A stretch of DNA of 64,000 nucleotides from Rhizaria sp. SCN 62-66 (GCA_001724265.1 MEDY01000101.1:1-64000); one strand, 5' to 3'; shown: positions 953 through 52,152, counted from the stretch's first letter. The notes: generated by a model not told the origin, from the sequence alone. Numbers and translations: made by a program.

Positions 953-1974
953 ATGGCGACTGAGCTGAACAAGGTACGGACTTGCTGTGATTACCCAACG
1001 GTTTGATCTTTTGAGCGTTGACTAGGTTAAATAAGCTATGTGTGGAGCTATGGCGTTGTTTAGCACACGATCTATGTGTGTATAAGTATATGATACTGCG
1101 CAGACACCTATAATGTTTAACCAAAAGGCTGCAGCAGGGCTGCTCAACACCCGCATACTCTCCACCACCATCAAAAGACAACGCATATGTGGGTCACGAG
1201 GCGCTATGTGCGCTGTATGTGACATGACAGCGCGCACATGACACGTTCAGGATGTTGCGACAGGTGCATCTTTGTTACAAGCATATTGATGTCTCCAAAC
1301 TATACGCCCTCTATTTCGCCATGACACTACATTCAGCTTAACATCATCACACCCAATGATCATGTCATCTCACCTCTTTGAAATCAACTTTAATGTCTAA
1401 TGTGCGATCACTTCAACAGGACGGCCTGCCGCGCGCGCACGCGAACCAGTCGAACATCGACAACCCGGTGGTGTTTTTTGACATCACGATGGGCGGCACC
1501 GCCTCGGGCCGCGTCGTGTTCGAGCTTTACGCCGACAAGTGCCCGCGCACGGCCGAGAACTTCCGCCAGCTCTGCACAGGCGAGCTGCTCAAGAACGGTA
1601 TCCCAGTCGGGTACAAGAACACGAGCTTCTTCCGCATTATCAAGGGCTTCATGGTGCAGGGCGGCGATGTGGAGAACAACAACGGCACTGGTCGCACCAG
1701 CATCTTCGGCCCCACGTTCCAGGACGAGAACTTCACGCTCAAGCACGCGGCGCCGTTCCTGCTCTCGATGGCCAACTCCGGTCCCGACACCAACGGGTCA
1801 CAGTTCTTCATTACGCTGGACAAGTGTGAGTGGCTCGACAACAAGCACGTCGTCTTCGGCTCCGTCATTGCGGGCCACGAGGTCGTGTCCAAGATGGGCA
1901 ACGTCAACACCAACGCCGCGCAAAACAACAGGCCCACGCTCGCCGTCGTTGTTGCTAACTGCGGTCAGCTCTAA
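953..1974 (+). CDS. PPIH: Cyclophilin-type peptidyl-prolyl isomerase, cyclophilin H (U4/U6 snRNP)-like
   Basis: Contains NPVVFFDI, PRTAENFRQLCTGE..KNGIPVGYK, FMVQGGD, DENFTLKH, LSMANSGPDTNGSQFFIT and CEWLDNKHVVFG. The KxGxPxGYK loop and KCxWLD resemble PPIH. Proposed structure: exon 953-973 (MATELNK), intron 974-1419 (GTACGG...CAG, phase 0), exon 1420-1974, giving 191 aa. An unspliced start at ATG 1393 is the alternative. Confidence 0.9.
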
Positions 1975-2367
1975 GCTGCGAGTGTGAAGCTTAGCAGTAA
2001 AATATTCCGTCAACGCGAATTTATGTTATCTAGTCAATATGAGCGCACTATCAAGCTGAATAAGGGTAACTTCAGTCGTTGCTGAACTGGGTGGGTTTTC
2101 CATGTTGCCATGCGCTGGTATGTAATTAGTCTTAGTCGTCTTAAATGTTTGTTCTGCATTAATATAGCCAACAAACAAATACAAAGCAATCCATTGTCCT
2201 CAAATGATAATACAAATTTCGACAGAAACGAAAAGAAAGGCTATATAACGCATATGTATTGACCAGAATAAGTTCGCATGAAAGATAATAGTCCCACAAT
2301 CATTAAGCTAACCGATATCATGAACTAAGGTAACGCTTGAGGATATCACAACTCACTGCCTGCTAGC

Positions 2368-4383: not shown

Positions 4384-5394
4384 GCTGCCAAAAACCAAAC
4401 ATTGGGGATGCGGGTGTAGGACCGGAGGTGAGCAGCCGGTCAAGCCAGACAGCAGAGTTGGGAGTTTGCGGGTGTGGAGATGAGTACAGTGCGTTCGCAT
4501 GTCCGTAGATAGAGATAATAAAGAGTGTACAAAACGAGTTAAAAGACCGCGTGTAGTGCGCTATGATTATATATTTTTAGAAGCTTGGGAATAGTGTTAT
4601 CACCGGCTTTAGCGTGCTCGACGATGACAGTTGGTGGTCTGGCATAGTTCGCAAAAAAGGGCGAGACATAGGAGCTGGCGATTTCGCCCATGTTTGACTT
4701 CAAAATCTACCTAGGACTGCGTATCGGTGTCGTATACTTGTAAACACTCGTGAATATACGGTTCTTGTTGCACACATGTGTCTGCTTTAATTTTGAACTC
4801 GCGTAAAGTGTGTTGTAGCGCTATGTGATGAGTCCCCAGCGTCCTAGAAGAATCTTCAGGGTTGGACTACTCGCAGAGGGCCCTCCACTGGACAGGGTCG
4901 GTATCTGCATCTGCGCTACCTCGATAGCGGCCGCGATTGAAGTTGGTGACAGTTGTTATCTTAGTTGGTCCGCTTCATGAGTATCCCCCCTACAGCTGCT
5001 TCTTCCATGTCGTGCGCGTCTCGAATCGGGACTCGACCGAGTCGACTTTGCCGCGACGGGCCACACTGACGTCCCTGTCCACCTTCTCATTCGAGCCTAT
5101 CCCCTGCTGTTTCATGATCGTCAATTAAATTTCCCGCGTAATTCAGCGTAAAATGCAGTTTTCTGTATTGTGTGGCGAGTATAATCTTTATTAAAATTGC
5201 GTTTCTATACCGTATTCCTTCTTTTCATGTGGTCCCTAGCCAACTTCCAGTCCAATCCCTGTCACTCATCCATGCGGATGCGTAACTTGCCTTCAACCTC
5301 TCCTCTGTCACAGAATTCATTCTAGGTCTAGATTTTTCTTAGTTTTCCTAGTACAACCCCTCTCTAAGCAACGCTCGCAGTCGAAACCCCGGCG

Positions 5395-8300
5395 ATGCAG
5401 CCCCCCTACGGGCTGGGCCTCGGCTCAGCCGCGCCGCCCTCGCTGGCTGCCGAACCGCCGCCTTCACACGCGCCGCCTACCGCACCGCACGCCACGCTCC
5501 GCGGTCCAGCCGTGGGCCCCGTTTTGGCGCCCGCGTCTATGCTACCTGGCGCTTCCTTCCCGCTGCACCAGCACTTCGCGTCCTCGGCCTCGCACTCGGC
5601 ACCGCGCGCGCCGCTCGCCGCGCAGGCCGCCATTCCCGCATCGGTCTTGTGCGCCGCGCCGCTCGCGCGCGCCCCCTCGCACAGCCATCACCATCACCAT
5701 GCGCGGGAACAACACCCGTCAACCGCAACGGCGGCCGGGCTCTCTGGGGGCGACGGTGGCGGCGCCAGCGGCAACGGCGGCGCTGGTGAAGGTCAGTCGC
5801 ATTCGCACTCACAGTCGCAAACGTCACAGCAGACGCCGTGCTCGATCCACGCGCCGGCTCCAACGCCGCCCGCGTTTGACCCCGTGGTGTTTTTCCACCA
5901 CATGACGATGCTGGAGCGCTCGCTGGCCGTGCTGCTGGGCGTCGGCGTGCAGAAGGAGAACCCTGCGATGGCGCTCACGGTGCTCACGCTCATCATCAAG
6001 TCGCTGTCGGCGCCGGAGTTCCGCGCGCTACCCACCGCCGTCTCTGCCACCGAGGCCGACGCCGCCCTTGCACACGCCACGCTCGCTGCGAGCGGCAGCG
6101 GCAACGGCAACGGCAATAGCAATGGACCAATGAACAGTGCCTGTGCTGGCGTGCCGCCGCACTTGATGCCGCAGTGGCCCTCTGGGCCCAGCGCGCTGGC
6201 GACGCTCGCGGCCGCAGGCTCTGGCTCAGTGCCGATGACCGCTGCGTTCGCGACTGTGGCGACCTCGCTGGCCTCGCTGCCGGGCTCCATGGTCGACGCC
6301 GTCTCCGCCGCCGTCTTCGGCCAGAACAACGCAGGTAGCGGCAATGGCGGGCATGGCAGCGCGATGGCGGGGCCCGTGCTGGCGTCTCCCGTGGACTCCA
6401 CCAACGGTTCGGTTGCCAGCCCGCTCCTCGGGGGCTCGGGACCGGACTCGGTCTCTGGCTCCAGCTCTGCCTCTGCCTCTGCGTCTGGCTCTGGCTCTGG
6501 CTCTGGCTCTGGTGCGTGGTTCGGCCCCGCAGCCCAGTCGCCGTCGCATGCGCAGTATCCGTTCCCCACCGACTCGGCGCAGGCCACGCAGCATCAACAG
6601 CATCAACAACAGCTGCAAGGATATGCTGGCGCTGGCGCTGGTGTTTTCCCGACACCTATTTCATCCCCGTCGAGCGTGTTTTCACCGTTCGCCCCTTTGA
6701 CCGCGTCGTCGGCTTCTGTCGCAGCAGCGGGAGCGGGAGCAGCGCTGCCGGCGGCGAGTCCCAGTGGTGCGATCTCGTCTTCCATGTCGCGGTCGTCGAT
6801 GACCTCGCTCTCTGCCTCGCAATCCTCCTCCGGCGGCCCGAGCCCCTTCGCCCCGCTCGCGGTGCCGCCACGGCCCGCCGTACCCGGCGACGTCGTCGCG
6901 TCTCTGCAAGCCGCGTTGTCGGGCCCGCAGCCCGCCTCTGCGGCGCCGCACGCCGCGCTGCCCGGCGCCCCTCGCGGCGCGGCCCGCGTCCTCCGCGCCA
7001 TGTCTGCGCTGGGCTCGGCCCTGTCGGCCCCGCGCGCCGGCGTCCCTAGAGGCACCGGCTTCGCGCCGGGGCCCGGGGACGCGGTCGAGCGCGCATGGCT
7101 GCTCCAGGAGGCGCAGCTGCGGGCCGCGCGCAGGGTGACGCTAGGCACGTGTTCCGAGGCCTTCACGGAGGAGCTGCTACGGGTCATGCGCGCCGCGATC
7201 GGCATCAGCGCCGACAGCGCACTGACGCACGATTGCAGTGGCAGTGCGAGTGCTGTGTGCGGACTGGACTCTGGCGCTGGCGCTGGTCAGACCGACGGTC
7301 AGTCTCAGTCCCAGTGTAGCCCGCTGCCGGTGACTCCGGAGCAGGCCGCGATCCAGGCCGCTACACTGGCGCACTGCAACGCCACGTCGTCGACGCCCAC
7401 GGCGCTCTCGACCCACGTGTTGCCGGCCACACTGCCATTCCGCCTGCTGCTTTGGTGCGCGACCTTCTGGCTGGCCGTGGCCACGCGCCGCGTCTTCCTG
7501 CCCTACCGCGCGCACCTGCACGGCGCCGCAGCCGTCAAGGCCAGCGCGACCGCGGCCAACGGCGTCAGCGCGGGCGCCGGCACGGGCGGGCTTGTCACCA
7601 CGCAGTCGCGCACCGTGATCAATAGTAGCGGGGCGGGGGCCGGCGCGCTCGTCGGCGGGACGCCCCCCGCGGGCACCGCTACGCGCAGCAGCTTCAGCTC
7701 CGTCGCCGGCGCGCTCAGCGGCAGCGGCGCGGGAACCACCGGCGCGGTCGGCACGGGTCAGTCGCTCTCGACGGGCGGTCGGCGCCGGCGCCGCCTGAGC
7801 AACAACAACAACAGCTTCACCGGGGGCGCGGTGGGCGCGGGCATCGGGCTCGACAGCGGCAGCCCGGTCTGGGGCGACGCGACGGACTCGGCCAGCTCCA
7901 GCTCGCAGCCGCACGCCCCCGCCGCCGCCGCTGGCGCGCGGCTGCACGGCGGGCGGCTGGGCCAGTCGCAGCTCAACGGGGCGGGCACGGCGGCGGTCGA
8001 CGACGACTCGGACTCGAGCTCGGACAGCTCCGACTACGACTCGCTGCCCTCGCCGCCCAACGGGCTCGCCGGCCACGGCGGCGGCGGCGACGGGGCGCGG
8101 TTTGCGGACGCGCGCCGTCGCCGCCGGGCGATGCGCGCGCGCGACGCGCAGAACAGCGTGCTGCGCGCGACGCAGTTCCTGGACTCAGTGACCACGCTGC
8201 CGCTGCCGGCCGGCGCGGCGGGCGCCGGTGCGGGCATGGGCTCGGGGTCGCTGCGCAACAGCGCTAACAACAGCAACGGCTCCGGTGGGCTCAGGTTCCG

Positions 8301-9187
8301 TCCCCGCGGCGCCGTGACACCCCCCGGCGCCTCGCACAGCCACCTGATGCCGCCCGCTGTCGGCTCCTCGGTCACCGGCCGCCACGGGCTCTCACAGGCA
8401 CCGGCGCCGGGGCCGCTGCGGGCGGTGCTGGAGCCCATCTCGGTCGCCGACGCCACGCGCGCGCGCAACGCGCTGCAGGCCGCGATGGCCGCTGCGCCCG
8501 CGAGCCGCGTGCCGCAGCGCTTCCTGCAGACGATGTACGCGCTGTCGGACATGGCATCGCTCTTCCCGCCTCAGGCGCACCCCGTCGGCGCTGCCGCTGT
8601 CGCTGCGGCCGCTGCCGCGCTTGACGCGTGTCCCGTCGCGGGCGGCGCGCTCGGCCGCGGCGTCGCGGGCATGGTGCAATTGTTTCCACTGACGGCCGCG
8701 GAGGAGGCGCGCAGAGACTGGTACGTACTGATGTCGCAGCGAAACAGAAATGTGTCATGACATTTGTTTATATACGTTTGCTTTGCTCTAAAATTGTGTT
8801 GACTTGCTAAAATTCTCATCCGCGTCTACATCGTCAAATTCTCATCAAACATATGTTTCCTATCTTTCTTTTTTGCACGACCTCATCCCCAGGCTTACCG
8901 AGCTTGCCGCAGCCGACCCCCACCGCGCCATCACGGCCGCCGCCGCCGCCGCCGCCGCTGCGACGCCCGCGGGCCGGCGTCGCGCCGCGGCCGCGGCCGC
9001 CGCGGAGACTGAGGGGCTGGACCCGGTGACTTTAGCGTCCATGTGGCGCGAGATCCACTACGTGCACGACTGGGCCCAGCCCAACGCGCACCGCGGGCCC
9101 GTCGCCGCAGCGAGTACGAGCAGCGGTGCGCACATGGCCGCGCTGGGCTGCGTCGTCCCACGCCTCCCGCTGGCGCAGCACCCTCAT

Positions 9188-9224
<37 letters not shown>

Positions 9225-12200
9225 GCGGCGGTTATAACGGCTACAATGGCTACAATGCTAACGGTACTGGCTTCAGCGCCAACGGACTCGACTGGACCGC
9301 TGCAGCCACGAACTTTGCGGACCAGCCCAGCGCCAGTGGCGGCGGCGCGTCCTGGCCTTCCCTAGGCTCCGGCAGCTCGAGCCTCAATGGCACCAGTAAC
9401 GCGGCATGCGCTGACTGGGACGCCCTGCGCCCCGCGGCCTCGCCGGTGCCGCTGTGGACGCCCGCGGGCCTGCTGCCCCAGTCCACCGCCGCCGCCGAGT
9501 CCACCGTGTCGGCGGGCTCCGCGGCCGCCGCGGCGGCCGCCGCCGTGGCTGCGTACTGGCGCGGCAAGCACCCGAACGAGGCGGTGGGCGCCACGCTCCT
9601 CATCGCGCCCGGCGCGCACTCGCGGCGCGCCGAGTGGCGCGTGCGCGACGCGCTGTCGCTGCCGGTGCCCGCCGCGGGCTTCGCCGTGCCGCCCGTGGTG
9701 GACCCTGCGGCGTGGGCAGACGCGCCTGGCGGCGGCCGCGGCGTGCCCGGCGTTGGCGTCGACTCGGCGTCCATCGCGCTGCACAACCACGTCGTCGAGC
9801 GCTGCTACGCCGCCGCGGCCAACAGCAGCTATAACGCGACGAATCATCAACAACAGCAGCAACAGCAGCAGCAACAGTGCATGTCGTCGGCGTTGTCGTC
9901 CATCTCGTCCCCGTCGTCGCTGTCTTCGACGTCCGCGGCGCCCGCGCTGGGCTTCACGCCGCGCGTCTTCACCGACGCCGCCGCCTACAGCTCTATTATC
10001 CCCTCGCGCCTCGCGCTCACGCGCTCCTGCTTCTGCCCCTCGTGCGTGTTCCTCGGCCACGCCGTCGTGCCCCGCCTGTCGCTCTACTCCATCTCGCGCT
10101 TCGCGCTCGACGCCGGGCTTTGGCGCACTGCCGTAGAGGCCGCCATCGCGCGCTCAGACAAGCTGCTGCAGTGGTGTTGGACCACGGCGGGGCTCGCGCC
10201 CGCCACGGGTCCCGGCGACTGCGCCGGTGGCAAGGTCCTCTTCACCGCAACCGCGAACGCCAACAAGTCAGCACTCGGACAGTCGCCGCAGCAGCAGCAG
10301 CAGCTGCAGCAGCTGCAGCACGTGCAGATGCAGACGTACATGCAGAGCGCAGCTTTCGCGCAGCCGGCGTACCGGGTCTCCCCGCAGGCGTCTCCGGCCG
10401 CCGCGGCCGCCGTCGCCTCGGCCGTCGCCGCCACCGCGGCCGCCGCCACCGCGCCTCCCTCTGCTTTTGCGGAAGGCCACAGCACGCAGGACCGTCATAC
10501 GCGCGCGCTCGTGCACGCCGTGCTGACGCTGCCCGACGACGCGCTGCCCTCAGTGCGGCTCTCAGCGCCGGGCGCGGACCCCGCCGCCGTGCGCGTGTAC
10601 GCCGCGCGCGCGAAGCTGGTGGGCGCGTCGCTGCTGATGCTCGGCGTCGGCCGCATGGAGGTCCGTAGAGAGCGCTACCGCCGCGACGCCTTCGACGCTG
10701 CCAACGCGGCTGCCGCGGAGGCCGCCGCCTCCGCCGCCGCTGCCGCCGCTGCCGCCGCGGCACAGCGCGGGGGCGCCGCGATGTCGGCCCATGACAACGA
10801 TGATGGCGCCGCGGGGGCCTTAGCGGACTCGGACGCGGCGATCAACGTCGACGACGAGTGCGGCGGCGTGCACAGCGGTGACAACTCGGGACAGCCGTTG
10901 CGCGTGCGGCCACGCGCCGCCGCCGCCGCTGCCTCGAGCAGGGGCCCGCGGCCCAAGGCCAGCCCGCTCTTGGGCAGCGGCCGCACAAGCAGCAACGGCA
11001 GCATCGGCAGCGGCAAGGCCTCAGGCTCGGGCTCGGGCTCGACCCCACGCACCGGCCCCGCGGCCGCCGCCAAGGCCAAGGCCAAGGCGGCAGCCAAGAG
11101 CAAGGAGTCGCTGCGGCACGTGGACACGCAGCCTGGGCTGTTGTCGGTGTGGGCGCGCTCGCTGCGCACCGCGATGGGCTCGCGCGGCGTGCGCCGACTG
11201 CGCGACCTGACGCTGATGCACCGCACCGCGCTCGGCTACCTCTCTATCCTCCGCGCCTCAGGCACGGCGCACGCGCTGGTCGACTCGGCTGACGACGACG
11301 TGGTGCTGCACGCGCTCTCCGTCGCGGCGGCGCGCGCGGCCCCCGCCGGCACAGACTTGCTGCTGGGCTCACTCACCGCGCTACCTCCCTCGCAGTCGTC
11401 GCAGTCTGCCGGTGCGCAGCAGCAGAACAACGGCGCCGCAGCTGCGTTCGCGGCGCGGCTCGCGACGGCGCCGCACGGGCCCATGCCGTACCGCACCGTC
11501 ATCACCGCAGCCGTCACGCCGATGCTCTCAACGTCGTCATCAGCCTCCGCAACAAGCAACAGCAATCAGCACACAGACGCGAGTAGCAATGACGGCAGCA
11601 ACGGCCCGACGATGTCGCCCGTGGCCGCGGCGGCGACGTACACGCTGACGCTGCCGCCTTCGTGTGGGCTGACGGCGGAGGCGATGTCCAGCGCGGTTTG
11701 GGCCGTCGCGTCGGACGGCTCACTGCTGCTCTCGACAAACGCGCTGCCCGACCACCGGCTAACCAACGTGCTCGCTGAGTCCTTCTCCGCCAGCGCCGCG
11801 TCCGCCCACGCCGGCGCCGGCGCGGCGAGTCGCACTCGGCCGCGGTTCCCGATGCTCATCCCGTCGCCGGTGACGCTGCTGCCTGCGCCCGCCATGGCAA
11901 CCTTCCCGCCCACTGTGGCCATGGACAGTGACGACGACTTGGCGGCCATCACCACCGCGGGCGCGACGGGCGCTGTGGCCGGCACCGGGCTGGCGCTGGC
12001 CGTGACGCTCGCGCTCATTTCGCCGCCGCCGCCGCTGCCGGCCACGTGCGCGACGGGCCCCGGCGCCGTGGTGACGCCCACGGCCGTCGCGGCCGCCATC
12101 GCGCGCCACAGCTCGGCCGTGCTCACGGCGCGCCTGGCCGCCGACTGCCTCGTCTCGGGCACACTGCTCAACCTGCCGAGCATCCGGTCGACGTCGGCAT

Positions 12201-21200: not shown

Positions 21201-22729
21201 GCGAGGGCGGCAGCTCCGGCAGCGGCGGCGGCGACATCAAGATGGTGCAGCAAGCGGCCTACGACGAGGCCACGCTGGCGACGTGTGCGCTCTACTCGCA
21301 CGTGTACCTGCTGCTGCTGGCGTGCGTGGGCGACCGCGCGGACGCCTTCTCGGCCGCGGGCGACGCCTTCGAGCGCGGTGTGTACGCGCCCTCGATGCCG
21401 CCCGACGCCGCCTCGGCCTTCGTGCTCTACGTGCTGGGCGCCACGCACCCCATCGGCGACGCTGAGTCACAGTTCCGTCTCGGCCTGCTCTACGCCGCGG
21501 GTCGGGGCGCGCCGCGGTCACTGAGACAGGCGCGCTACTGGCTCGCGCAGGCCGCGCTGCAGCACCACGCGCACGCGCAGTACGTGCTCGCGCGCGTCAT
21601 CGCCGCCGACGTGAGCTCCTCGGTCCTGAGCAGCTACTGGCACGCGCGCTCGCTCGCCGCGCTGGGGCTCCCAGGCATCGGTCAGGCTACCGGCAGCGGC
21701 GGCGCGGCGGCCGTCGTCGGCAGCGTTGCCGCGTCGTCGGCCGCAGCCATCGCCGCTACCAGCGCAGTCGTCGGCGGGGACGGGACCGTGATCCTGCCCG
21801 CGCCGCCCACGCCCAGCAGAGCAGCCGCTGCAGCCGCAGCCGCTGCAATGCAGGCCGGGTCCGGCCCCGCCGCGGCTTTCGGCGAGGACGACGAAGATGA
21901 GGACGACCGCGCGGGGCGCGACTCGGCCGCCGCGCTGCCTGCGCACGGCGCGCTCAAGAAGGCGCGCTCCGTCCCGCCCGCCATGCACGCCACGCTCGCG
22001 CACGCCAACGCAGTGGTGACCACTAGCGGCGCCGACGGCGCGGCGGTCGCGGTCGCGATGGGCGACGCCGACGGCGACGGCGACAGACCGGCGCACAACT
22101 CGGGCGGCGCCAACGGCACCGTCGCGAGCTCCGGCGGCGACCACATCGCGCCGCCGGTGTCGGCCGCGGCGCACACCGCGCACGCGTCCACGAGCGACGG
22201 CGGCGGGAGCGACACTGCAGTGTTGATGCCGCGGCCGATCCCGCCCGCGGTCTTCCGCCTCGGGCTCGAGCTCTTCTCGCCGCACGCACTGCAGGCCTAC
22301 GCGCCGCTCGTGGGCGAGATGGCCGAGGCCGTGGCGCTGGCGCGCGCGTCCATCACGCTGCCCTCGGTCGCGCGCGCGGTCGACGTCGTCGCCGGCGGCG
22401 CCGTCTCGGTCGCGCAGCTGCAGACCGCGGGCGCGCTGCGCACGGCTGGGCAGAGCAGCAACGGCGGACACGCGGGCAGCCTCGCGCCGGGCCAATCGAT
22501 GGCGGGCACGGCCTCTTTCTCGGGCTCCCAGGTCAGCGGCGGCAGTGGCAGCGCGAGCGTCGGGCCCACCGGCGGCGAGGGCGGCGACACCGAGATCTGG
22601 GGCGTGGAGATGTGCGGCGCCAACGAGATGATCGTGTACTACACCGTGGTGCCCGACGACGAGGTTTTTCCTACGCAGGGCGACGAGTTCAAGGAGTACG
22701 TCAAGCTTAGCTACGGACGCAGGAACTGA
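5395..22729 (+). CDS. Giant low-complexity protein of unknown function (about 5720 aa) with a C-terminal SEL1-like repeat
   Basis: ORFs 5395-8760 and 8804-22729 join in frame across an AT-rich intron at 8721-8892 (GTACGT...CCCCAG; junction TG|G = Trp, giving RDW-LTEL). GC3-rich codon usage is uniform. The SEL1-like motif GDAESQFRLGLLYAAGRGAPRSLRQARYWLAQAALQHHAHAQYVLAR lies at about 21455-21595. Confidence 0.85.
9188..9223 (+). repeat. Perfect (CAG)12 microsatellite encoding poly-Gln
   Basis: Read directly from the sequence. Further mixed CAG/CAA tracts occur near 9848, 10289, 14645, 19845 and 21080 in the same gene. Confidence 0.95.
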
Positions 22730-24907: not shown

Positions 24908-27900
24908 TCACAGCTTAAAACGCTGCGCGGCCTGCTTGGTACGAGTACGGCGCATCGCGGCCTCGGTGCTGCCGCCGCGGCCGCCCGTGGCGCCAAAGAC
25001 GGCCTTCTGCGCGCCGTAGAAGCCCAGCGAGCCGGGCTCGGCCTCCATCACACGCTCGCGCTCCAGCAGGTCGAACTGTTCGCCCACGTCAAGCCCGTCC
25101 AGCGCTGACGCCGACGCCGACGATGAGTGGGCCGGGAAGCCGTGCGCGGTGAGCGACAGCGTGTCGTCGAACGAGGACGCCAGACCGTCGAGCGCGTCAG
25201 TGGCGCCAAACGCGCCGCCCCCGTTGGCGTTGGCGGCCTGATACGCAGTCATGAAGGCGCGCGCGAGCGCAACCTTGGCGTTGTTGGCGGCCGTGCGCGC
25301 AGACATGGCGAGCGCTGCGGAGCGCTGGCGCTCGGTGTCGGCGGCGGCGTACTGCTGCTTGAGCTCCTTGGCCTCGCGGATGAGTGCGTACTCCTCCTCG
25401 TCGATCACCACGACGCCGAGCCCGTCGTCGCCCCACCCCGCCGCGGCGGCCACGGCCCCGTCGGGCGCGGCGCCGCGCGCGGCGCGCTTGGCCACGATGC
25501 GGCGGTTGACGCCGTCGACGAGCGCCTTAACGGCGTTCATGCGCTGCGCGGCGGCTGCGGCGGCGTCCTTGTGCGCGTCGTAGTCGCGGCGCCGTGCCAG
25601 GAAGGCCGCGTTGAGCGCCGCACCGGGGCCCTGGCGGAACTCGAGGAACGCCTCGTCCTCGGACTGCGTCGATAGCGCTGCCGCATTGCCGCTGCTGTTG
25701 TTCGCGGTGGCGTTAAAGGCGGCACCAGAGGGGGGCTGTGCGGTGACATTCGCGCTGCCGTTACCGCCATAAGCAGCAGCAGAGGCAGGGCCGCCGACAG
25801 TGGTGGTGGCGAAGCCGCGCTTGCTGTCTGCGCCGCCCAGCGTCGCCGCACCCGCGCTCGCGAGCCCGCCCCTGCTCTGCACGCCCAAACCGCCCGCATT
25901 ACCGCTGGCGCTGCTGTTGCCGGCGTTGACGAGCGTGTAGCCGATGCGCGGCGTGTTTTGCTGGAGCGCGCGCACGTCCGACGGGTTGGTAGGCTTGGCG
26001 TTGCTGCTCGCGATGCCCATGTGGAAGCCGCTGTCGCCGCTCGTCAGGTGGCCCACGTTGACGGTGCGCTGCGCCAGCGCCACGCGCGCGGCCTCGGCGT
26101 CCGCGGCGGCCTGCGCGGCGGCGGCGGCCTCGGCCTGGGCAGCCGCGGCAGAGGCCGACGCCGCGCTGCCGCGGCCGCCCGCGCCGCCGCCGCCGCCGCG
26201 CACGGCGCGGGTCGTGGAGCTGGGCGTGCCACCGGCGCCGCCAGCAGAGCCGCGGTTAGCGCTCGCAGCCGCAGTCCCAACCGCAGCGGCGCCGCCAGCA
26301 GCAGGGGCGGCGGCGGTCGGGGCCGCGGGGACGGGGGAGCCGAGAGGGGCAGGAGCAGCGGTCGCAGCGTTGGCAGAGTCACTGCCACCGAGGGAGGCTG
26401 TGGTGGACAGCGAGAGCGTGCCACCAAAGCCGTTCCCGGAACCGCCGTTGCTGTTGCTGTTGCTGCTGATGGCACCCGGCACGGCGCCGCCGGCGGAGAG
26501 CGAGGCGACGGAGCGGTTGGCGCTTTCGAGCTGCGCCGTAAGCGCGTGCACCATGCTGCGGAACTGCAGCGTGACTTCGTGCGCATGCCGCAGCGTCGTG
26601 ATGTCGATCTGCGGGATGTTGCCGTGAACGAACGCGCGCACCGTCGCCGCCACCTCGGCCTGCTCCTCAGGTGTGTAATTATCGTAGTTGACACTCGAGC
26701 CGCGGTTCGCCAGCGTGTCGTGCATCGCCAGCTCGCGCTCGAGCGCGCGCACACGCTTCTGCAGCTTCGCCAGCAACAGGCCCTCATCCGCAGCCTCGAC
26801 GCGCGACGCGTAGGTCACCACGCGCATCATCCTGAACAAAACAAAAATCAAGAGGGTATATTCCACAAATATCAAACGTGAGTTCATTTGATGATGAATA
26901 CAAAAAATCAGAGTGAAAGACCAACACTACTTCTCGTTTATGTGGTTGCATTTGTGTTATCTGTCGTGCGTACCTGGCGGCGAAGCGGAGTGTGGAGACG
27001 GTCTCGTCGAGGTGCACGGCCTCGCAGCGCACGTTGGCGATGAGGCGCGTCTTGCAATTGCCGCCCAGCGAGTCACGCAGCACGTTAGTGAGCTTGTTCT
27101 GGCGGAACGGCACGTGGTCGCGCGCGCGGTCCGCCAGCGCGACGACGACCTGCTCCAGGAACGAGAGCGACTTGTTGATGTAGCGCGCCTCGGTCAGTGT
27201 GGCACCTGTGGAGTTGGTCTTACCGACGCGCTCGGAGCCGGCGAGATCCACCAAGTTGAGCTTGCTGAGCGTGCGCTTCTCAGAGCTCTCGACGCGCGAG
27301 CACGATTCGATGGCGACAGTGAAGATGCAGTGCGAGCGCGACGACGCGGCGTTCATGTCGTGCCGCGACACGGCGCGGTTGCTCTCACCACGGAACAGGC
27401 ACTGCAGCGCCTCCTCCTCCGTCGTCACGATTGTGGTGGTCAGTCCCTTAACGACAACGGCGCCGTGCTCGTTGTCGCGCACGGCCAGGTCCGACAGCTG
27501 GCGGCACTGCGGGTCCAGCAGGTCGAAGTACGTCTCGTTGTAGATCTCCAGGTAGCTCACCGTGACCTGGTAGGCGGTGTCGGGCCGGTTGGCGATGTGG
27601 CGGAACACGTCCTCCAGCGCGCGCGGGATAATGCCGCGCTGCGCGTAGGCCGCCGTGTTGCCCAACATCGTGTACGTCTTGCCGGCGCCCGTCTGCCCGT
27701 AGGCCATGATGGTGCCGGAGTAGCCGTCGACTGCGCTGGCGACGATGTCGGCCGCACAGTCGTCGTACACGGCGTCCTGCGACGCGTTGTGCAGCACGTT
27801 GTCGTAGTCAAACGCCCAGTCCTCCTGCTGGTTGTTGATGTGCAGGCCCTGGGCTTTGGGAATGTGCACGTCGATGTGGCGCCGGTCCGCGCCCAGGCGC

Positions 27901-28409: not shown

Positions 28410-29428
28410 ATGCTCCGTGCTACTGTCTCCCTTTCTCGTGCGGCGAAGCCTCTGGCTCGCGTTGCCACCAAGGCCGCTCCCCTCATCCGCATGCCCGTCC
28501 GCGCGATGTCGACCGAGAGCAAGCCTGTCTGCAGCGTCGGCAAGAACATCAGCAAGCGTACGTCCTTCCTCCACCCCTGCGCACCACAGCCGTGGCCGTA
28601 AGGCTTTGTAATAATTGCCATGATAGATTACTACTTTTTATTCGCTCCTATTGTGCACAGATCCTATACTGCACTGACGACAGACCAAGATACCGCTTGT
28701 TTGTGAACATTCGTTCGCGCTTGCATGCTCGTTCGCCGGTCTGGCGGGACAGCTGATCACTGCTGCTAGCCTTTCCCGCGCTTCCATTACTTCTGCGTTT
28801 CATTTGACATAACTGCCTGGGCTTACATATACCCACTGGTTTCATTGCCCATCCATACGTTTTCGTTTCCAGTCAACGGCGACCAGCTTTTCCTCTACTC
28901 GTCGGTGGCCCTCGGTATCTGCCTGCCCCTCTCGGTCCTCACCGCGCCCACCTTCCTCTCGGTGCCCTTCGACACCGTCGTGGCTGTCGCTCTGCCCTTT
29001 CACATGGCCACCGGTGTCGGCCACATCGTCGAGGACTACACCCCCGCTGCCTACAAGGTCTGGGCTATGCGCCTCGTCAAGCTCATTGCGATCCTCGTCG
29101 GTACGTCTTGCTCCACTCACTTCTTGACCTCGCCGCAGCTCTCTATCGTGCTGTGTTTAAACAAGCATTGATACGCGCATCTGCACGCTGTTGTTTTCTC
29201 CATTATATTTCAGTTTCACAATGCGAAATCTTTGCTTGGACTAGCGGAAGCTTGACTACCGACCAACTAACCATCGTCTGCCCCTTCGTCTGTCCCGATT
29301 CGTTTTCTTCTGGTTCCCCGCTCTCAGCGTACGGCTTGATCAAGATCTCCTTCTGCGGCAAGGGTATCGGCTACTCCATCAAGTCTCTCTGGCTCGATGC
29401 CCCCAAGAAGAGGACCCCCGTCGCGTAA
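28410..29428 (+). CDS. SDH4: Succinate dehydrogenase cytochrome b small subunit (CybS/SDH4), 158 aa
   Basis: Exons 28410-28557, 28873-29100 and 29328-29428 have matching phases; both introns (28558-28872, 29101-29327) are GTACGT...CAG. The N-terminus is an Arg/Ala/Ser-rich mitochondrial presequence, followed by three hydrophobic helices, the H-x3-G-x3-IVEDY heme/quinone motif (FHMATGVGHIVEDY) and a C-terminal GIGYSIKSLW. Confidence 0.85.
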
Positions 29429-30299: not shown

Positions 30300-32321
30300 T
30301 CAGTGCATCGGCGGCGGCCCGGCGGGCGCGGCACTGCGGATGAAGCCGATGGGGTTGGGCCGGTTCTTGAACCAGGCCTGGATAGGGAGTTCCTTGCCAA
30401 AGCGCTGCGCGGCGGTGACGCCGTTGATGCGCTTAAAGCGCCAGAGCGCGGCGACGTAGGCGGCGCCCATGAGGAAGCCGCCGACGTGACCGGCGTGGCC
30501 GACCTCGGAGTTGGGGTCCAGGAACATGGACGAGAGGTCGATAACCGCGTACATGGCAACGGCGAAGGGGATCGGCACGTAGGTCAGACGCATGAAGATG
30601 TGGTCGCGCGGGAACAGCACCGCGGCAGCAGCACTGCGATGTGTGAGGGCAAAGTGTACAAAGAAGAAGACGAAAAACGGTGATGTGAGTACTACGATGT
30701 AGTGCGACAGTATAAAAAGTACAAAACTATGTGTACACAACACAACACAATAATACACAATTATTCAGATAAAATCTTATGTTTCAGGCATTAGCGTACC
30801 TGATGGCCATGCAGGAGCCCGAGGCGCCGAGCAGCGGCATGTCAACCTTGCTCATGATCTTGGTCGCCTCCTCCTCGGTGATGTCGCTGTCATTGCCCAG
30901 CGCGAGTGTCTCCGCGAAGCCGAAGCCCTTCTCGGTGCGTCCGTTGATGACGTTGAGCAGGCAGTGCATGGCCGAGCAGCCCAGGGCGCCGGTGAGGTAG
31001 AGCCCAGTGAAGTAGCGCGGACCGAGGAAGTTGTACACTTTGGGCGCGAAGAGGAACAGCGAGGTGAAGTTGCCGAACAGGTGGTCAAAGCTCTGGTGCG
31101 AGATGGCAGAGGTAAAGATGGTCCACGGACGGTGCACGAATGAATCGACGTTGACGGTGAAGTTGTCGCCCATCCAGTCCATCTTCTTCGCCACGTGGTT
31201 GATCTCGGCCTAAACAATGAGTAAAACAAACATATGTTCAGAGTGGAATGTAAGTTTACGTATTCAATGCAATTCTACGTTATACACAAATCCGATATCA
31301 AAACATCAACTCGTTTTGTGTTGACCAATACAACAATTGTAAATTCTTCGCAAAAAAATATCTGACAAAGACAGCGTTGGTGTGATCGTACCTGGCTCAT
31401 GCCCTGCGCGAGCCGGAGCAGGTTGCGCCCGGCCTTCTCCTGCGGGTCGGTGAGCTTGGCGTACTCCTCCTCGGTGAGCGGCGCGCGCTCGATGGCGGTC
31501 ATCATGGCCATCTTCCAGGCCCAGAAAACGCCCAGGCAGATGGCGAATAAGGAGAGGTACATGAGCAGCGGCGACTTGCCCGGGTGCGCGGGGTCAATGG
31601 GGATCACCCATGTGCTGTTGTGCAGGTAGAACCAGTTGAATGGCGCCCTGTTGGCATACACGGGGTTGTCCGACTCGACCACGCGCGACATCGCGGAGGG
31701 GTGAGGCTTGACTTCCGCGCTGTGCTCGCGGTCGATGTCGGCGCGGGAGCGGAACAAAAAACGCCGCGGAGGGGTGCGGCCCAACTTGGCGACCGCGGAG
31801 AGCGAGAACGGGCGCGAGAAGGCCCACGCCACGGCGGGGGCGCTGACCGCGTTGGAGCCGACAGACGCCCTCACACTCGCAACAGACATGGATGCCTCCG
31901 CCGGGAGCAGGGATACGCGCGAGCGCAGCAGCGGGGAGGAGAGGGACGTCGCGGTCGCAGCCGCGGAGGCGGGACTGGCGCCGGCGCGAGCACTGGTGCT
32001 GGCGAAGCGCGCATTGACGGCGCGGACGTTAGCAGCAGTGGTGGAGGGCGTAGCTGTAGTCAGCGGGCTCGCGAGCGACGCGAGCGCAGTGGCGAGCGCG
32101 GGGACCGCGGAAGTGCGGGCGCGGACAGGCAGCGGGACCACGGTGACGACAGTGTGCAGGGATGCGGCAGCGACGGAAGATACAGCTGTAACGGAGACCG
32201 AGGCGGTCGCGCGGGGACGGCGAGAGGCGAGGGGGGCGAGGGACGTCAGCAGCGCGCGCGGGGGCTGGGGCAGCGCGGTGCGGCGGAGCGCGGCCCGAAA
32301 AAGCAGGGACGACTTCATCAT
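30300..32321 (-). CDS. Rhomboid-family intramembrane serine protease, mitochondrial PARL/Pcp1-like (about 557 aa)
   Basis: Exons 32321-31392, 31209-30800 and 30633-30300; introns start GTACGA and GTACGC and end in AG. Contains RPWTIFTSAISHQSFDHLFGN, catalytic GASG and VGHAGHVGG (catalytic His). The long N-terminus is Arg/Ser/Ala-rich and almost free of acidic residues, like a presequence. Confidence 0.9.
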
Positions 32322-39100: not shown

Positions 39101-41920
39101 CGGCGTACAGGCCCACGGCCAGCGCCGGCAGCGCGGCGCCACCTTCGGACTCAGCATTGCCATTAGCGTCAACAATCTTGGTGCCGGCCGAAGAATCGAT
39201 TGCAGAAGCGGCGCCGTTGCTCGCCGCGACCTCTACGCCTGCCACAGCGTCTGCCTGTGCGCCGGCCTGTGCGTCGGCCATGTTCATGGCGAAGATCGCT
39301 CCCTGGCGGCTCTGCATCTGCGCCTGCCACAGCGCCGCGCGAGCCGCGCCCACGGCCAGCTGCGGCGCGCCCACGCGCGTGAGCGCGGTGTAGAGCTCGG
39401 CCTGCAGCAGCGGCGGCGGCGCGGCGCCGAGCAAGCGCAGGCGGCGGACGACGGCGGCGGCGGCGTGGCCCCAGTCGCGCGTGAAGAGCAGCGCCGTCTC
39501 GAGCGCGTGGCGCATGTCGGCGTCCGTGGCGCGCGCCCAGTGCAGCTCCGCCAGCAGCGGGCCGCGCAGCGACGCATGCGCCGCCGGGCTCACGGTCGCC
39601 GTTGCCGTCGCCGTCGCCGTCGTCGTCGCAGTTCCAGTTCCAGGCGCAGGCGCAGCAGTTGCAGTGTCAGGTGATGAGTCCGCAGCTGCATTGCGGTTCA
39701 AAAGGCTGAAAAAGGTGTCATTGCTCATGGAGCTGGCCGCCTTCATGACCGCGCCCAGGCCGGAGCCCGCGCCCGCGCTCGCGCCCGCGCCCGCGCCGAG
39801 GCGCTTGGACTGCAGGTGCGCGTCGGTGCTGGCGATGAGGTCCTCCAGTGCCGCGATACCGGGCCCCGGCTTGGTCTTCGCCGCCGCCGGCGCCGCGGCC
39901 CCATCCTGCGATACTGTAAGTACCCCCTTAGCCAGGGCGTCCTCGACGGCGTCTCCGGGCACCGCGTGCGGCATGTAGGCAGCGACAAGCAGGTCCGCGA
40001 GCCAGGGCTCGCCCACGGGGGCCGCCAGCGGCGCCACAGCGGCCGCGGGGAGCGGCGCGGCGCGCGGCAGCCGCAGCAGCAGCACCAGCAGCGCCGCCAG
40101 CTCGTCGGCCGTCGCCGCGGGTGCCGCGAGCGCGCGCGTGACCAGCAGCGCCAGGCGCAGCGGGTTGGCCGCGCCGCGCGCGAGCGCCGCTGGCAGCGGG
40201 GGCAGCGCCGCGTGGCGCGGGCCTGCGGGGACGCGGCTGCCCAGCGAGGCGCTGGCGCCGCCGCTCTTGAGGGTCACGTTAGGCAGGTATCGACGACCTA
40301 GCTGCTGTTGCTGCGGGGGCTTGCCGTGGCCGCCGCGCCTGCTGCTACGCAAACCCTGGCTGGCCTGGTTGGCTTCGAGCACGAGCAGCGTCTCGCGCAT
40401 GGCGGCGTGCGTCTGCGCCTCGAGCAGCGCGGGCAGCCCGCCCCAGCGGCCCAGCGCGCGCAGCACCACGGGCGGCGTCGCGCCGGGCAGCAGCGCCGCC
40501 GCCGAGGCCGCAGTGATGTCGTGCGACAGCGCGCGGGCCAGACCGGGACCCGCGGCACTCGCCGCACCATCACTCGCGGTGCTAGAACCAGAGAGAGAAT
40601 GAGGGCTAATCAGGCTCGCGTTGGCGATGGCGCTGCCGCCGCTGCTTTGCGCGTGGATGTCCACGGCGGCCTGCAGCGGGTCGCTGAAGGCGCGGGGCAG
40701 CGCGCCCGCCTGTGCGCCCCACTCGGCCAGGTAGGCGGCGGCGGTGGCGCGCGACACGGCGCCCGCGTGGGCCGCAGCCACGGCGGCGGCGCCCGCGGGG
40801 GTCGCCAGGTAGACGTCGAACCAGCGCACGGGCGCCGCCAGGGCCGGGTCCAGCGGGGCGGCGAGCGGAGTCGCAGTCGAGACAGAGCCAGAGCTAGCGC
40901 TCGACGTGTTAGATGTGTGCGCATCTGTATCGTGGTTGATTGGGGTTGGGTAGAATGAGTTCGAGAGGGCAGCGAAGTAGCCGAGGACGGCCTGGGTAGC
41001 TGCAGTCTCTTCAGCAGCCACCGCAGTCGCAGTGTCTGCATTCGCAGTCTCAAGATGGGCATCGTTGCTGCAGCCGCCGTTCGTTGCAGCGCCCGCGGCG
41101 GGCATGAAGCCCAGCTCAGTGCTCGCGGTCGCAAACGCAACAGGGTTCCTGCTCAGCGTGTTCGAGACGAAAGAGGAGACCGCGCGCTTCGATCCCGCCG
41201 CATAAGTTACCGGTGCGGTTGTTGATGCTTCGGCAGCCACGGCCTCCGCGGCGGACAGGGGTGCGGCGGGCAGCGGACGCGGCGCAAGCGAGGCTGGGAG
41301 CCGCGCGGGCACGGCCCACTGCAGCGCCGAGTCCACCACGCGGTCCACGGCCGCGGTCGCGGTCGCAGTCGTGCTCAGAGATGCGGACGCAGAGGCAGAG
41401 TCGGCATTGTGAGTGGGAGTGCCTGCAGCAGTGGTGGACTGGGGGAAGCAGAAGGCAAAGTCCGCGATGGGGGCGCCAGCAGGCATAGGGAAGCCTTCAG
41501 CGACCGTAAGCACTGCCACAGACGCATTTTCAACGCTGCCAGAGCCCGACGCGACCGCTGTGGCGCTAGTGGCGTGCGCGGCAGTCGCTGCGGAGGCTGT
41601 GCTGGGCGCGAGCGCGTCGAGCCACGCGGCGACGGAGGGCGAGGCCAGCGCCGCGCGCGGGGGCTGCGGGGCGGTCTTGGAGGCTGAAAAGTATCGCAAG
41701 GAGGCCGCTGATGCAGCAGACTAAGCGCGAAAGCAAAGAGAGAGAGGTAGAGTGAGGCAGAGCGATGGATGAGAGGATGGGCAAACGGACGTGAGAATGA
41801 GAGCATTGCAGAGGATATAACCACGGGACGCGGGGGTTAGAGGGTGCAACGTACGTGGAATCCGATGGTCGAAACGCGGACAGACCGCGCGCTCGCAAGC
41901 GCATGTTGGGCGCGGAACAT
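33177..41920 (-). CDS. Giant Ala-rich protein (about 2869 aa) with a predicted mitochondrial targeting peptide; function unknown
   Basis: An 8.5 kb open frame (41720-33177) has no ATG at its 5' edge. It joins in phase 0 to exon 41920-41855 (MFRAQHALASARSVRVSTIGFH) across intron 41854-41721 (GTACGT...TTAG), continuing as SAASAASLRYFSASK. Confidence 0.8.
38888..38953. repeat. Adjacent hexamer tandem repeats (GCGCTC)n and (GCGTCA)n encoding Ala-Ser and Ala-Asp dipeptide runs
   Basis: Read directly from the sequence. The minus-strand translation is ASADADADADADASASASASASASD. Confidence 0.85.
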
Positions 41921-42264: not shown

Positions 42265-42903
42265 ATGTCTCGTAACGTCAAGTCCACGGAACAGATCTTT
42301 AGCGATCTCCGCACTGACTTTATCGACCTCATCAAGACTGCCGCTGTACGTCTCATCTTGGCTGCACTGCTTTTCTTGTAACATTTATTTGACGTATGTC
42401 TCTTTATCACCTACACGTATGACGTCAAAACACTCAACTCCTCACCCCACACCCCTTCTACACTATATTTGTTGCTCTTGATATCAATCTTCTTCATAAC
42501 TGCGCGTTTATCCTCTCCACCTTAGATCGGCGACATGACGCTGCCAAAGGACGACAGCTACGTTGCGACCTACTCCGTCGATGACATTGACGCGTTGCCC
42601 TCTGCCGAGCTCCAGCGCGACACCGAAGCGGCCGCGCTGGCCTCGACGCTTAAGTCGCACGCGCTGGTGGCCTCGGCACAGGAACTCATGCGGCGCCTGG
42701 CGGCCCTCAAGCTGCGCGCCGCGGCGGACTCGGCGCGCCGCAGCGAGGCCAACACCGCGCTTCTGCGCGGCGTCTTCGCGGGCCGGCGCGCGCAGACTGT
42801 TGCCGCGACGGTCGGCGCGCTCGCCGCGCTGGACGCCGCGGCTGAGGACGTGCAGCGTCATCTGGAGGGCTCGCTCGAGGGCGTCCTGCTGCCGGAGCCG
42901 TAG
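42265..42903 (+). CDS. MED22: Mediator of RNA polymerase II transcription subunit 22 (Med22/Srb6)-like, 152 aa
   Basis: Exon 42265-42345 and exon 42526-42903 are joined across a phase-0 intron (GTACGT...TTAG). The spliced LRTDFIDLIKTAAIGD and KSHALVASAQELMRRLAALK resemble the recalled Med22 pattern DNFTEIIKTAKIED...RAANIVRAGESLMKLVSDLK. Confidence 0.65.
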
Positions 42904-49145: not shown

Positions 49146-49733
49146 GCGCATACGTGTACATGATGCACGGATTCGCAGAGGTTTTGTATTTAATTATCAC
49201 GCGATACTTATGGATTTATGCTCTATCTTGTGAGTCGTATGTGTTTTGATGGAATAAAGTGTACTTTTGTAATCTCACCACATAAGCTTTTTGGGCCAAG
49301 CACACAGTGACTATGACGTACTTGCACGAAGGGCCGATGACACACCAAAATTAAAAGCTGTTTCACGGCATATCCAGACGTAACTCGTTCTCGGCGATTT
49401 ATTTGCAGATTTTAAATTAGAACATATGTAGCTTGAGTATACTGGTGATTCGTTGGTGTTTGGGATCGCTGTGATATGATCTTTGCAAGATTGCTGCACC
49501 GATAATCCTGACATGTGGACCCACCTGATGCATTCTACCTTCCTACACGCTGCTCAAAAAGAATATTCGTTGCCCTATGTCTTTTTCCACGATATGATTT
49601 ACGAAAGAGCTCTATTCTAAATCTATTTTTCATATGCTCACGATGTACCTCTCAAATCTCTCACCATTCTAACTTTGGTCCTCCATCTTGCCCGACGCTT
49701 GCACTCCCACTGAACCGTCCCCAGTGTTGTACC

Positions 49734-52152
49734 ATGGGTGGCGCTCTTTCCGCCGGCTTTGACTACAACGCGGCCCTGCTTAATGATACGGCGCGCTCCT
49801 ACACGGTCGCGCTCGACGAGGAGCCCGAGGAGGGCTACGGCGTGCCCCGCTGCATGCCCGCCGTGGTCGAGCACGGGCACCCCGACACGTACGGCACCGC
49901 GCGCACGCTTTGGGACATGTTCAACCTTGGCCTCGCGCAGTTCCCGCAGAAGGACTTCCTCGCCGCGCGCCGCTACACCGTCCAGGAGGGGCCCTACCCC
50001 GAGCGCACTCCCGAGCAGGTCAAGAAGCTCCGCAAGGGCTACGTCCCCAGCGGCTACGTCGAGCGCCCCGACGGCTCCGTACTGCGCGGCGACTACGTGG
50101 GGCTTAACTTTGCCGAGGCCAACGCGGCCGCGCTGGCGCTTGCGCGCGGGCTTATTGCGGGCGGACACACCGAGGCCGGCAAGACGGTTGGCATCTTCTG
50201 CGTCAACCGGCCCGAGTGGACGATTGCGTCGCTGGCGTGCTACTCGCACTCGCTGACTGTGGTCTCGCTCTATGCCACGCTGGGCGCCAACGCGATCGAA
50301 TACATCATCGAGCACGGCGAGACGGGCGTCGTGGTCGTGTCCAAGGAGAACCTGCCCGCGCTGCTCACGGTCCTCAAGCAGACGCCCGCCGTGGCGCAGA
50401 CGCTCAAGACGGTTGTCTTCATCGACGCTATCCTCGACGGCCGCTTCGGCAATACGCTCGACAAGCCCGCCGAGGCGGACACGGCTGCGTTCGCGGCCGC
50501 GGGCGTGCAGCTAGTGACCATGTCGTCGCTCATCGCCGCGGGCTCCGCGGCCGACGCCGAGGGCAAGGTCGTGCGCCGCGAGGCGGCCGCCGAGGACCTG
50601 GCGTTCCTGATGTACACGTCAGGCACGACGGGCAACCCCAAGGGCGTGATGCTGACGCACCGCAACGTGGTTGCCACGATCGCGGGTGTGCGCGCGCTGC
50701 TCGAGCAAAACGAGAACGCCTTCCAGCGCTACTTTAGCTACCTGCCGCTGGCGCATATCTTCGAGTCGGTGGTGCAGCTCGTCGTGTGGTGCACGGGCGG
50801 ACTCGTCTACTTCTCCCAGGGCGACACGCGCTACCTGGCCGACGACATCAAACTCGTGCGTCCCACGATGCTGCCCGGTGTGCCGCGCATCTGGCAGAAG
50901 TTCTACCAGCGCGTCTTCGCAATCGTCGACGAGATGAGCTGCCTCAAGCGCTGGTACGTGTACCGCGCCTACAACGCGCAGTGCGCGCTGCTGCGCGCGC
51001 AGCAGCCCATCGATCCCACTTACGACAGTAAGATTTTCAAGACAATGCGCGAGAAGATGGGCCTGGAGGACTGCAAGATCATCCTCAACGGCGCGGCGCC
51101 GTGCCCGCCGTACATCGTCGAGTTCCTACGCGTGCTCACAGGCAACGCCTGGGTCGCGCAGGGCTACGGCATGACCGAGGGCTCCGCGGGGTCTGCGGTC
51201 TCGCTGGCCGATGATCCGCACATCGGCGCGTGCGGGCCCCCGACGATGGTCAACACGTTCCGGCTCGCCGACATCCCCGACATGGGGTATCTGAGCTCCA
51301 ACTCTCCCGCCACGGGCGAGCTGCTCATCATGGGGCCCAACACTTTCCTCGGTTACTACAAGGACGAGCAGAACACGGCCGATGCGTACTTCGTGGACGC
51401 CAAGGGCCGCCGGTGGCTCCGCACGGGCGACGTCGGACGCTGGAACCCCAACGGCTCGATCTCGATCATCGACCGCAAGAAGAACCTCATCAAGCTCGGA
51501 CAGGTACGTACACTCAGAATTTTCCTGTAATCCCTTCATGTCATTGTCCATTCTATCAGTGAAATCTTAACTAATCCTTGTTTTTCTCATCACCTCCAAC
51601 TCGTTTGTTTTTGATACTCTTTGCTTGCTTGCTTGTTTGCTTGCTTAGGGTGAGTACGTCGCTCTGGAGAAGGTGGAGGACATCTACGGCAAGTGCCCCG
51701 CGGTGGGCCAGCTGTGGATTTACGGCAACGGCTTTAAGAACGTCGTCGTTGCGGTTGTCGTCCCCGACGGCGCCGCGCTGCACGCCTTCGCCGTGTCTAA
51801 GGGCTGGTGGTCTGCGGCCGAGATTCCGGCCCCCGTGGGCGCGCTCGACGCGCCGTTCCGCGCCGCGGCCGCTGCGCTGGGCGAGGACGCCGAGAAGCGC
51901 GCCGCGCTGAGCGCGTGGGCGCTGGGCGAGCTGCGCAAGTTCGAGTCCGGGCTCGTGGGCTTCGAGAAGATCAAGGCGGTGTACGTGGAGCTGACGATGG
52001 ACGCCATGGGCCAGGGCTTCACCGAGGAGAACGAGTGCCTGACGCCGACGATGAAGAAACGCCGCAAGCAGCTCACGGACAAGTATGTGCCCGTGCTTGC
52101 GCAGCTCTACAACGAGGTCGGTGAGCCCCAGAAGGCCGGTGAGCACTGGTAA
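49734..52152 (+). CDS. Long-chain fatty acyl-CoA synthetase (ACSL/LACS family), 757 aa
   Basis: Contains AMP-binding MYTSGTTGNPKG, SYLPLAHIFE, GYGMTE and LRTGD. The motif IIDRKKNLIKLGQ|GEYVALEKVE is reconstituted across intron 51504-51648 (GTACGT...TTAG, phase 0). The C-terminus has LTPTMKKRR. Confidence 0.95.

Follow-up and report, generated by a model that had tools for sequence, protein, structure and literature searches.

A preference for C at position +4 of the 5′ splice site (donor) has been described in Thecamonas trahens and in Mamiellales, both of which have a standard U1 small nuclear RNA (snRNA), and in Mastigamoeba balamuthi, whose donors are GUGCGC and whose U1, reading ACGUAC, complements GUACGU exactly (available text of 10.1101/2022.06.08.495308). 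Position +4 faces the 5′ end of U1 first and then, in the U6 ACAGA box, the middle A, a base methylated by METTL16 in many eukaryotes (available text of PMC8163875). Homogeneous +4-pyrimidine donors in intron-poor lineages are already described, and the phenomenon is not new. A literature search on GTACG, GTACGT and GUACGU donors found no paper naming a GTACG consensus for any lineage, Roy & Bowser 2022 being the closest. Here we report ten predicted introns with GTACG donors, where GTAAG or GTGAG would be usual, in MEDY01000101.1:1-64000, a stretch of 64,000 nucleotides (nt) deposited under Rhizaria sp. SCN 62-66. This whole 64-kb stretch is referred to as the window, and all counts are for the window unless stated. 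From the predicted introns, a lineage with invariant GTACG(T) donors probably exists.

Donor sequence of the introns

GTACG is present on the expected strand at all ten donors listed in an earlier sequence-only reading of the window. The donor hexamers are GTACGT (six), GTACGC (two), GTACGG (one) and GTACGA (one). Positions +1 to +5 are invariant in 10/10 introns, +6 is T in 6/10, and −1 is G in 7/10. The intron lengths of 134 to 446 nt given in that reading were reproduced with the nearest suitable acceptors (446, 172, 142, 315, 227, 182, 166, 134, 180 and 145 nt, in the order in which the donors had been listed). Its claim that near-fixed +4 C marks a lineage-specific code holds as far as invariance in the window goes (10/10, seven of them robust), with the qualification that the phenomenon had already been published.

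The pentamer is frequent in the window, with 95 copies on both strands, 40 of which are on the exon sense strand. Because GTACG is common by composition, the string alone is no proof, and the evidence must come from its position. Introns were sought independently of the motif by a scan of guanine-plus-cytosine (GC) content, open reading frame (ORF) structure, and enumeration of frame-keeping GT-AG pairs. Seven stand-alone AT-rich islands (GC 0.42 to 0.50, versus 0.69 in exons) break open frames in the GC scan, and each is one of the ten listed introns, which themselves range in GC from 0.33 to 0.54. The other low-GC stretches are intergenic or lie in frame within the third giant ORF of the window. 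The base-composition and ORF search of the window gave no intron with any non-GTACG donor.

Seven introns are robust, five having junctions supported by homology and two (8721 and 31391) by long-ORF continuity across an AT-rich island; the remaining three (974, 41854 and 42346) are plausible, optional cases with short 5′ exons. The numbers of feasible frame-keeping GT donors at the robust introns are 8, 11, 4, 12, 6, 1 and 1, and GTACG is among them each time. It is the sole frame-compatible GT donor at 30799 and at 51504, and none of the alternative feasible donors at the other sites looks like a standard donor. ACG follows GT in 95 of 7008 cases, which gives a probability of ~2e-9 for the seven robust introns; a chance origin of the GTACG donors is excluded. 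Judged from these predicted junctions, the strong +4 C preference within the window is real. If the window is representative, 7/7 robust introns set a one-sided 95% lower bound of ~0.65 on the genome-wide share of +4 C.

Exons do not avoid the pentamer: 40 copies were observed on the sense strand versus 46.0 ± 5.1 under synonymous codon shuffling (z = −1.2). Avoidance in the exons would have been a separate indication of a pentamer code and was not seen, and raw sense/antisense asymmetries are confounded by codon usage. Since exons hold GTACG unavoided, the pentamer is not a sufficient code. Since the 40 sense-strand copies are apparently unspliced, recognition must also use the AT-rich intron body, the branch site and the 3′ end.

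Other pentamers on the exon sense strand depart from expectation under the same shuffling. GTAAG is below it (2 versus 8.1 ± 2.4, z = −2.5), GTGCG is enriched (114 versus 83.8), and GTCCG is depleted (45 versus 69.8). These biases may reflect codon-pair or dinucleotide bias.

Structure of the introns and support for their junctions

All ten introns have GT/AG ends. Their 3′ ends are pyrimidine-rich and close with CAG in six introns and TAG in four. A branch-like motif, CT[ACT]A[CT], has its A at 41 to 59 nt from the 3′ end in 9/10 introns; of 2000 shuffles, each with its own choice of position window, one gave as many. In 6/10 introns the motif lies at 46 to 52 nt (0 of 1000 shuffles). By donor, the motifs and distances are CTCAC at 47 nt (974), CTCAT at 48 (8721), CTCAC at 47 (26973), CTTAC at 47 (28558), CTAAC at 57 (29101), CTTAC at 41 (31391), CTCAC at 52 (30799), CTCAT at 49 (41854) and CTCAT at 59 (51504). 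The distance of the motif from the 3′ splice site is thus nearly fixed and rather long.

The GT/AG ends, the YTNAY-like branch motif with its pyrimidine-rich 3′ end, and the restoration of frame and of collinearity with homologs are those of U2-type introns. The donor consensus of U12-type introns is RTATCCTT; a U12 class was considered and rejected, as no extended donor of that type was found and all ten introns read GTACG followed by variable bases. Beyond the splice signals the introns are mutually unrelated (best pairwise local score 25, versus 17.2 on average and 29 at most for shuffled sequence), and they are not copies of one mobile intron. They are best described as predicted U2-type GT-AG spliceosomal introns of the ordinary kind, in a nuclear genome that is GC-rich and poor in introns, with the putative homogeneous 5′ consensus (A)G/GTACGY, the slash marking the junction.

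The intron at 8721..8892 (+) is 172 nt long (GTACGT...CAG, phase 2) and lies in the giant orphan gene at 5368-22729, where it joins parts of 1117 and ~4600 codons. GC drops from 0.74 to 0.36 at its donor and is 0.38 over the intron. Read-through meets a stop 37 nt in, and splicing restores one frame. A search of a collection of 5.8 billion proteins gave no homolog of 2554-8129 residues for the giant ORF at 8792-22729, and none that spans this junction.

In the KIF9-like kinesin gene, the intron at 26832..26973 (−) is 142 nt long (GTACGC...CAG, phase 2) and falls at the end of the motor domain. The Pfam Kinesin match stops at model position 324 of 327, no more than two residues from the donor, the downstream exon holds the KIF9 domain, and GC drops from 0.69 to 0.35 at the donor.

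The SDH4/CybS gene has two introns, both GTACGT...CAG and in phase 1, at 28558..28872 (+) (315 nt) and 29101..29327 (+) (227 nt). Both junctions are gap-free against 10/10 homologs, among them the 70%-identical P0242, and a Pfam CybS match was found in 8/8 homologs scanned, four of them above the curated cut-off. SDH4 exon 2 had no match in PDB.

The rhomboid protease gene also has two introns. Intron 1, at 31210..31391 (−), is 182 nt long (GTACGA...TAG, phase 0); GC drops from 0.70 to 0.35 at its donor, and a 325-codon upstream ORF runs in frame into the rhomboid exon. Intron 2, at 30634..30799 (−), is 166 nt long (GTACGC...CAG, phase 2) and directly follows the GASG active-site motif. Here the Pfam Rhomboid match to model positions 3-77 ends one residue before the donor, the match to 81-142 begins at residue 2 of the next exon, and GC drops from 0.64 to 0.26.

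In the long-chain acyl-CoA synthetase (ACSL) gene, the intron at 51504..51648 (+) is 145 nt long (GTACGT...TAG, phase 0) and splits the motif KLGQ/GEY. The spliced protein is gap-free across the junction against 10/10 homologs, and GC drops from 0.61 to 0.34 at the donor.

The sequence-only reading had counted seven junctions as anchored by conserved protein motifs. Five of these stand, namely the kinesin, the two SDH4, the 30799 rhomboid and the ACSL junctions. The 31391 rhomboid junction lies 27 residues ahead of the Pfam domain, so it has no motif anchor, and for the seventh the label given to the protein, Med22, found no support in Pfam, PDB or the Atlas.

The three optional introns all have short 5′ exons. 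The candidate at 974..1419 (+), of 446 nt (GTACGG...CAG, phase 0), is in the cyclophilin gene, with an exon 1 of seven codons (953-973). An in-frame ATG at 1393, within the intron, could start the protein unspliced, making the intron optional; there is no GC step (0.42 on either side), and Pfam Pro_isomerase starts in the downstream ORF. The candidate at 41721..41854 (−), of 134 nt (GTACGT...TAG, phase 0), joins a 22-codon ATG exon to a 2847-codon orphan ORF (33177-41720). It is in frame with the upstream ATG and has a pyrimidine-rich 3′ end; it is weaker than the others, with an intron GC of 0.54, later in-frame ATGs in the ORF and no homologs. The branch-like motif shared by these two candidates (47 and 49 nt) gives more confidence in both.

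The third candidate, at 42346..42525 (+), is 180 nt long (GTACGT...TAG, phase 0) and belongs to the gene for a small helical protein. It joins in frame to a 27-codon ATG exon, and just two GT donors are possible. Exon 2 has an in-frame ATG of its own four codons in, which leaves this intron optional as well, and the intron has no branch-like motif at 41 to 59 nt, the nearest being at 81. The split motif of the protein resembles that of MED22, an identity that was not confirmed: neither exon had a Pfam match at E ≤ 1, the protein fell in no named Atlas cluster, and in PDB exon 1 had no match and exon 2 only chance-level matches.

Gene content and affinities of the source organism

The window has a GC content of 65% and encodes nuclear eukaryotic genes. 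By Pfam, the gene order is cyclophilin, DPH1, the giant orphan (5368-22729), the KIF9-like kinesin, SDH4/CybS, the rhomboid protease, a further giant orphan (33177-41720), the small helical protein, a mitochondrial carrier, RabGAP, ACSL, and the third giant ORF (52524-63998, −), which continues past the window end. In the three giant genes Pfam gave nothing beyond a single Sel1 repeat below threshold. Intron density is low, with 10 introns in 12 genes and ~52 kb of exon, and unbroken exons reach 4600 codons. No tRNA was found in the window, and an Rfam search of the window gave no match at gathering scores or at E ≤ 1, so it holds no snRNA.

Among the matches listed, the closest protein to ACSL in a large collection is 50% identical and that to DPH1 is 59% identical by BLASTP (69% across 401 columns of the DPH1 tree alignment), while the closest relative of SDH4 is P0242, at 70%. 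The best named matches, again among those listed, are spread over fishes, fungi, dictyostelids, oomycetes and algae; given this scatter, the organism would belong to a poorly sampled protist lineage. A search for sequencing runs listed six, from wastewater, activated sludge and biofilm, with 0.00 to 0.74 of the sampled words shared; they are taken as evidence of neither splicing nor habitat.

A tree of one gene, DPH1, was built from 35 rows hand-picked from the 120 listed, with no apusomonad or archamoeba row among them. The window sequence and two relatives form a clade with support of 100. A split with a Shimodaira-Hasegawa-like approximate likelihood ratio test (SH-aLRT) value of 96 groups this clade with oomycetes, a brown alga, Chlorella and an MMETSP sequence, and leaves Amoebozoa and Opisthokonta on the other side. 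The placement away from Amoebozoa and Opisthokonta is only a hint of where the organism may belong.

DPH1 was also used to scan other collections. Among 51 loci in metagenomes none came from the organism of the window, and the closest, L001, is a 2-kb contig with no intron-like island; viral contigs gave 0 relatives. Genome contigs gave a single locus (L052), 41% identical and from a different, GTGCG-rich organism. This locus, L052:10001-11405, is a eukaryote-type DPH1 relative on a contig of 201,880 bases and 68.5% GC titled as an uncultured Actinomycetota metagenome-assembled genome. The stretch around it has 91 GTGCG copies in 17.7 kb and short islands of lower GC, and the contig may be a mis-binned GC-rich eukaryotic one.

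Two further features were noted. The kinesin tail contains a KIF9-type domain (24911-26830, −; Pfam PF23735, E 8e-5, below the curated cut-off), which hints that the organism may build a flagellum. Between two convergent gene ends lies a 2.2-kb AT-rich stretch (22780-24948, GC 0.42) in which searches for ORFs of more than 77 codons, Rfam matches and tandem repeats found none; it is long for two 3′ untranslated regions, given the compactness of the region.

Reading of the +4 C and comparison with known systems

Within the window, the predicted junctions give strong evidence for +4 C donor uniformity, not for a particular mode of recognition. We suggest that the uniform donor would be an instance of the splice-signal tightening seen alongside intron loss in a number of eukaryotic lineages, with C as the +4 pyrimidine in this case. 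A standard U1 5′ end (ACUUAC) would pair with positions −2 to +3 and +5/+6, and the +4 mismatch would be tolerated, as is reported for Thecamonas, Mamiellales and budding yeasts. The C, which is unpaired both with standard U1 and with the A in the U6 ACAGA box, would owe its selection to a protein factor or to a subsequent stage of splicing that involves U6 ACAGA, U5 or Prp8. The likeliest mechanism in our view, towards which we lean modestly, is a standard U1 whose +4 mismatch is tolerated, with C chosen later.

Several points weigh against this account. Its standard U1 would have as its basis the precedent of two lineages out of the three in which +4 C has been described. The unavoided exonic GTACG neither supports nor explains a strong pentamer-based signal. 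Only 7/10 introns are demanded by reading frames, and 974, 41854 and 42346 were found partly via the motif. All ten junctions are predicted here from DNA sequence, and ten introns in one 64-kb window may be unrepresentative of the genome. Finally, GUACGU is the perfect complement of a Mastigamoeba-type U1 (ACGUAC), which favours a rival explanation, a co-evolved snRNA.

Under that rival, the U1 5′ end would read ACGUAC and form six Watson-Crick pairs with GUACGU or, much less likely, the U6 ACAGA box would be changed, and +4 C would be a fully paired optimum rather than a tolerated mismatch. GUACGU, the exact partner of the Mastigamoeba balamuthi U1 variant, occurs in 6/10 introns, and Entamoeba is a second case of compensated U1 in the available text of 10.1101/2022.06.08.495308. 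The U6 box of Cyanidioschyzon merolae is changed to ACUGA, which pairs with +4 A (available text of PMC8163875), so snRNA changes at the base facing +4 do occur. Against this, Thecamonas and Mamiellales, two of the three +4 C lineages, are described as keeping a standard U1. T at +6 in just 6/10 introns would leave the pairing imperfect in places, and the single-gene DPH1 tree, which lies away from Amoebozoa, would make a compensated U1 here an independent event. A co-evolved snRNA is therefore possible but on the unlikely side. That an unsampled protist lineage outside Amoebozoa and Opisthokonta independently fixed GUACGU together with a co-evolved U1 (5′ ACGUAC) or a changed U6/METTL16 appears doubtful. 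If it did, the window would add one more independent instance of splice sites and snRNA evolving together, in an organism plentiful enough in wastewater for study with data that already exist.

It is improbable that +4 C is one of several donor classes, made to look uniform by motif-aided recognition in one small window. The three introns that no frame requires, the compositional abundance of the pentamer (95 copies), the possibility of introns in untranslated regions or in small unannotated genes, and the derivation of all introns from DNA alone would allow for such an artefact. The seven required introns, however, were found through base composition and frame with no use of the motif, and 7/7 start with GTACG, against a chance of ~2e-9; no frame-breaking AT-rich island has another donor. 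Uniform-architecture introns in small genomes can arise via introners in some algae and fungi, and the shared donor and branch-site distance would fit recent copies of one mobile intron-generating element, with the donor shared by descent and not by selection, but this origin is very improbable given pairwise similarity no better than shuffled, lengths of 134 to 446 nt, and no tandem or dispersed repeat reported in the introns.

The standard-U1 account and the co-evolved snRNA both bear on an open question posed in the available text of 10.1101/2022.06.08.495308, namely why intron-poor lineages repeatedly adopt U1-mismatching donors and when the snRNA follows. A lineage with invariant GTACG(T) donors would be a clean test case, as this donor is the exact complement of a U1 variant reported to date from Mastigamoeba only and its +4 C cannot pair with the U6 A. 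With standard U1 and U6 it would be the third lineage whose +4 C has no explanation in RNA pairing; otherwise it would be an independent event of co-evolution.

The window shows the two marks of transformed +4-pyrimidine donors, low intron density and near-uniform +4 C (10/10, seven robust), and shares further features with each of the described systems. Thecamonas trahens (Apusomonadida) is likewise an intron-poor protist with a +4 C preference and common canonical branch motifs, in the available text of 10.1101/2022.06.08.495308. Compared by that text description only, the window donor (A at +3, C at +4, G at +5 and mostly T at +6) may resemble the Thecamonas donor. Thecamonas is absent among the 120 best listed matches for ACSL or DPH1, and the DPH1 tree has no apusomonad row. 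The Mamiellales (Micromonas, Ostreococcus and Bathycoccus) have compact GC-rich genomes and homogeneous GYGCGY donors with C at +4 and G at +5. They differ in being marine picoalgae with G at +3, where the window has A in 10/10 introns, and their U1 is described as standard.

Mastigamoeba balamuthi shares C at +4, and its U1 variant would pair perfectly with the GUACGU of the window. Unlike the window, it is intron-rich, with 2.5 introns per gene, and has G at +3 and C at +6 (available text of 10.1101/2022.06.08.495308). It is also an anaerobic amoebozoan, whereas the window has genes for SDH4 and a mitochondrial carrier and lies away from Amoebozoa in the DPH1 tree. Saccharomycotina, Giardia and Trichomonas combine intron loss and a standard U1 with a strict GUAUGU donor, whose +4 pyrimidine likewise mismatches the U1 5′ end. 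Their +4 U is able to form a pair with the A in the U6 ACAGA box, whereas the C of the window cannot (available text of PMC8163875). In Schizosaccharomyces pombe, GTACG-type C4 introns are a normal minority in the available text of the same source (514/5056 classified introns, ~10%), versus 10/10 in the window.

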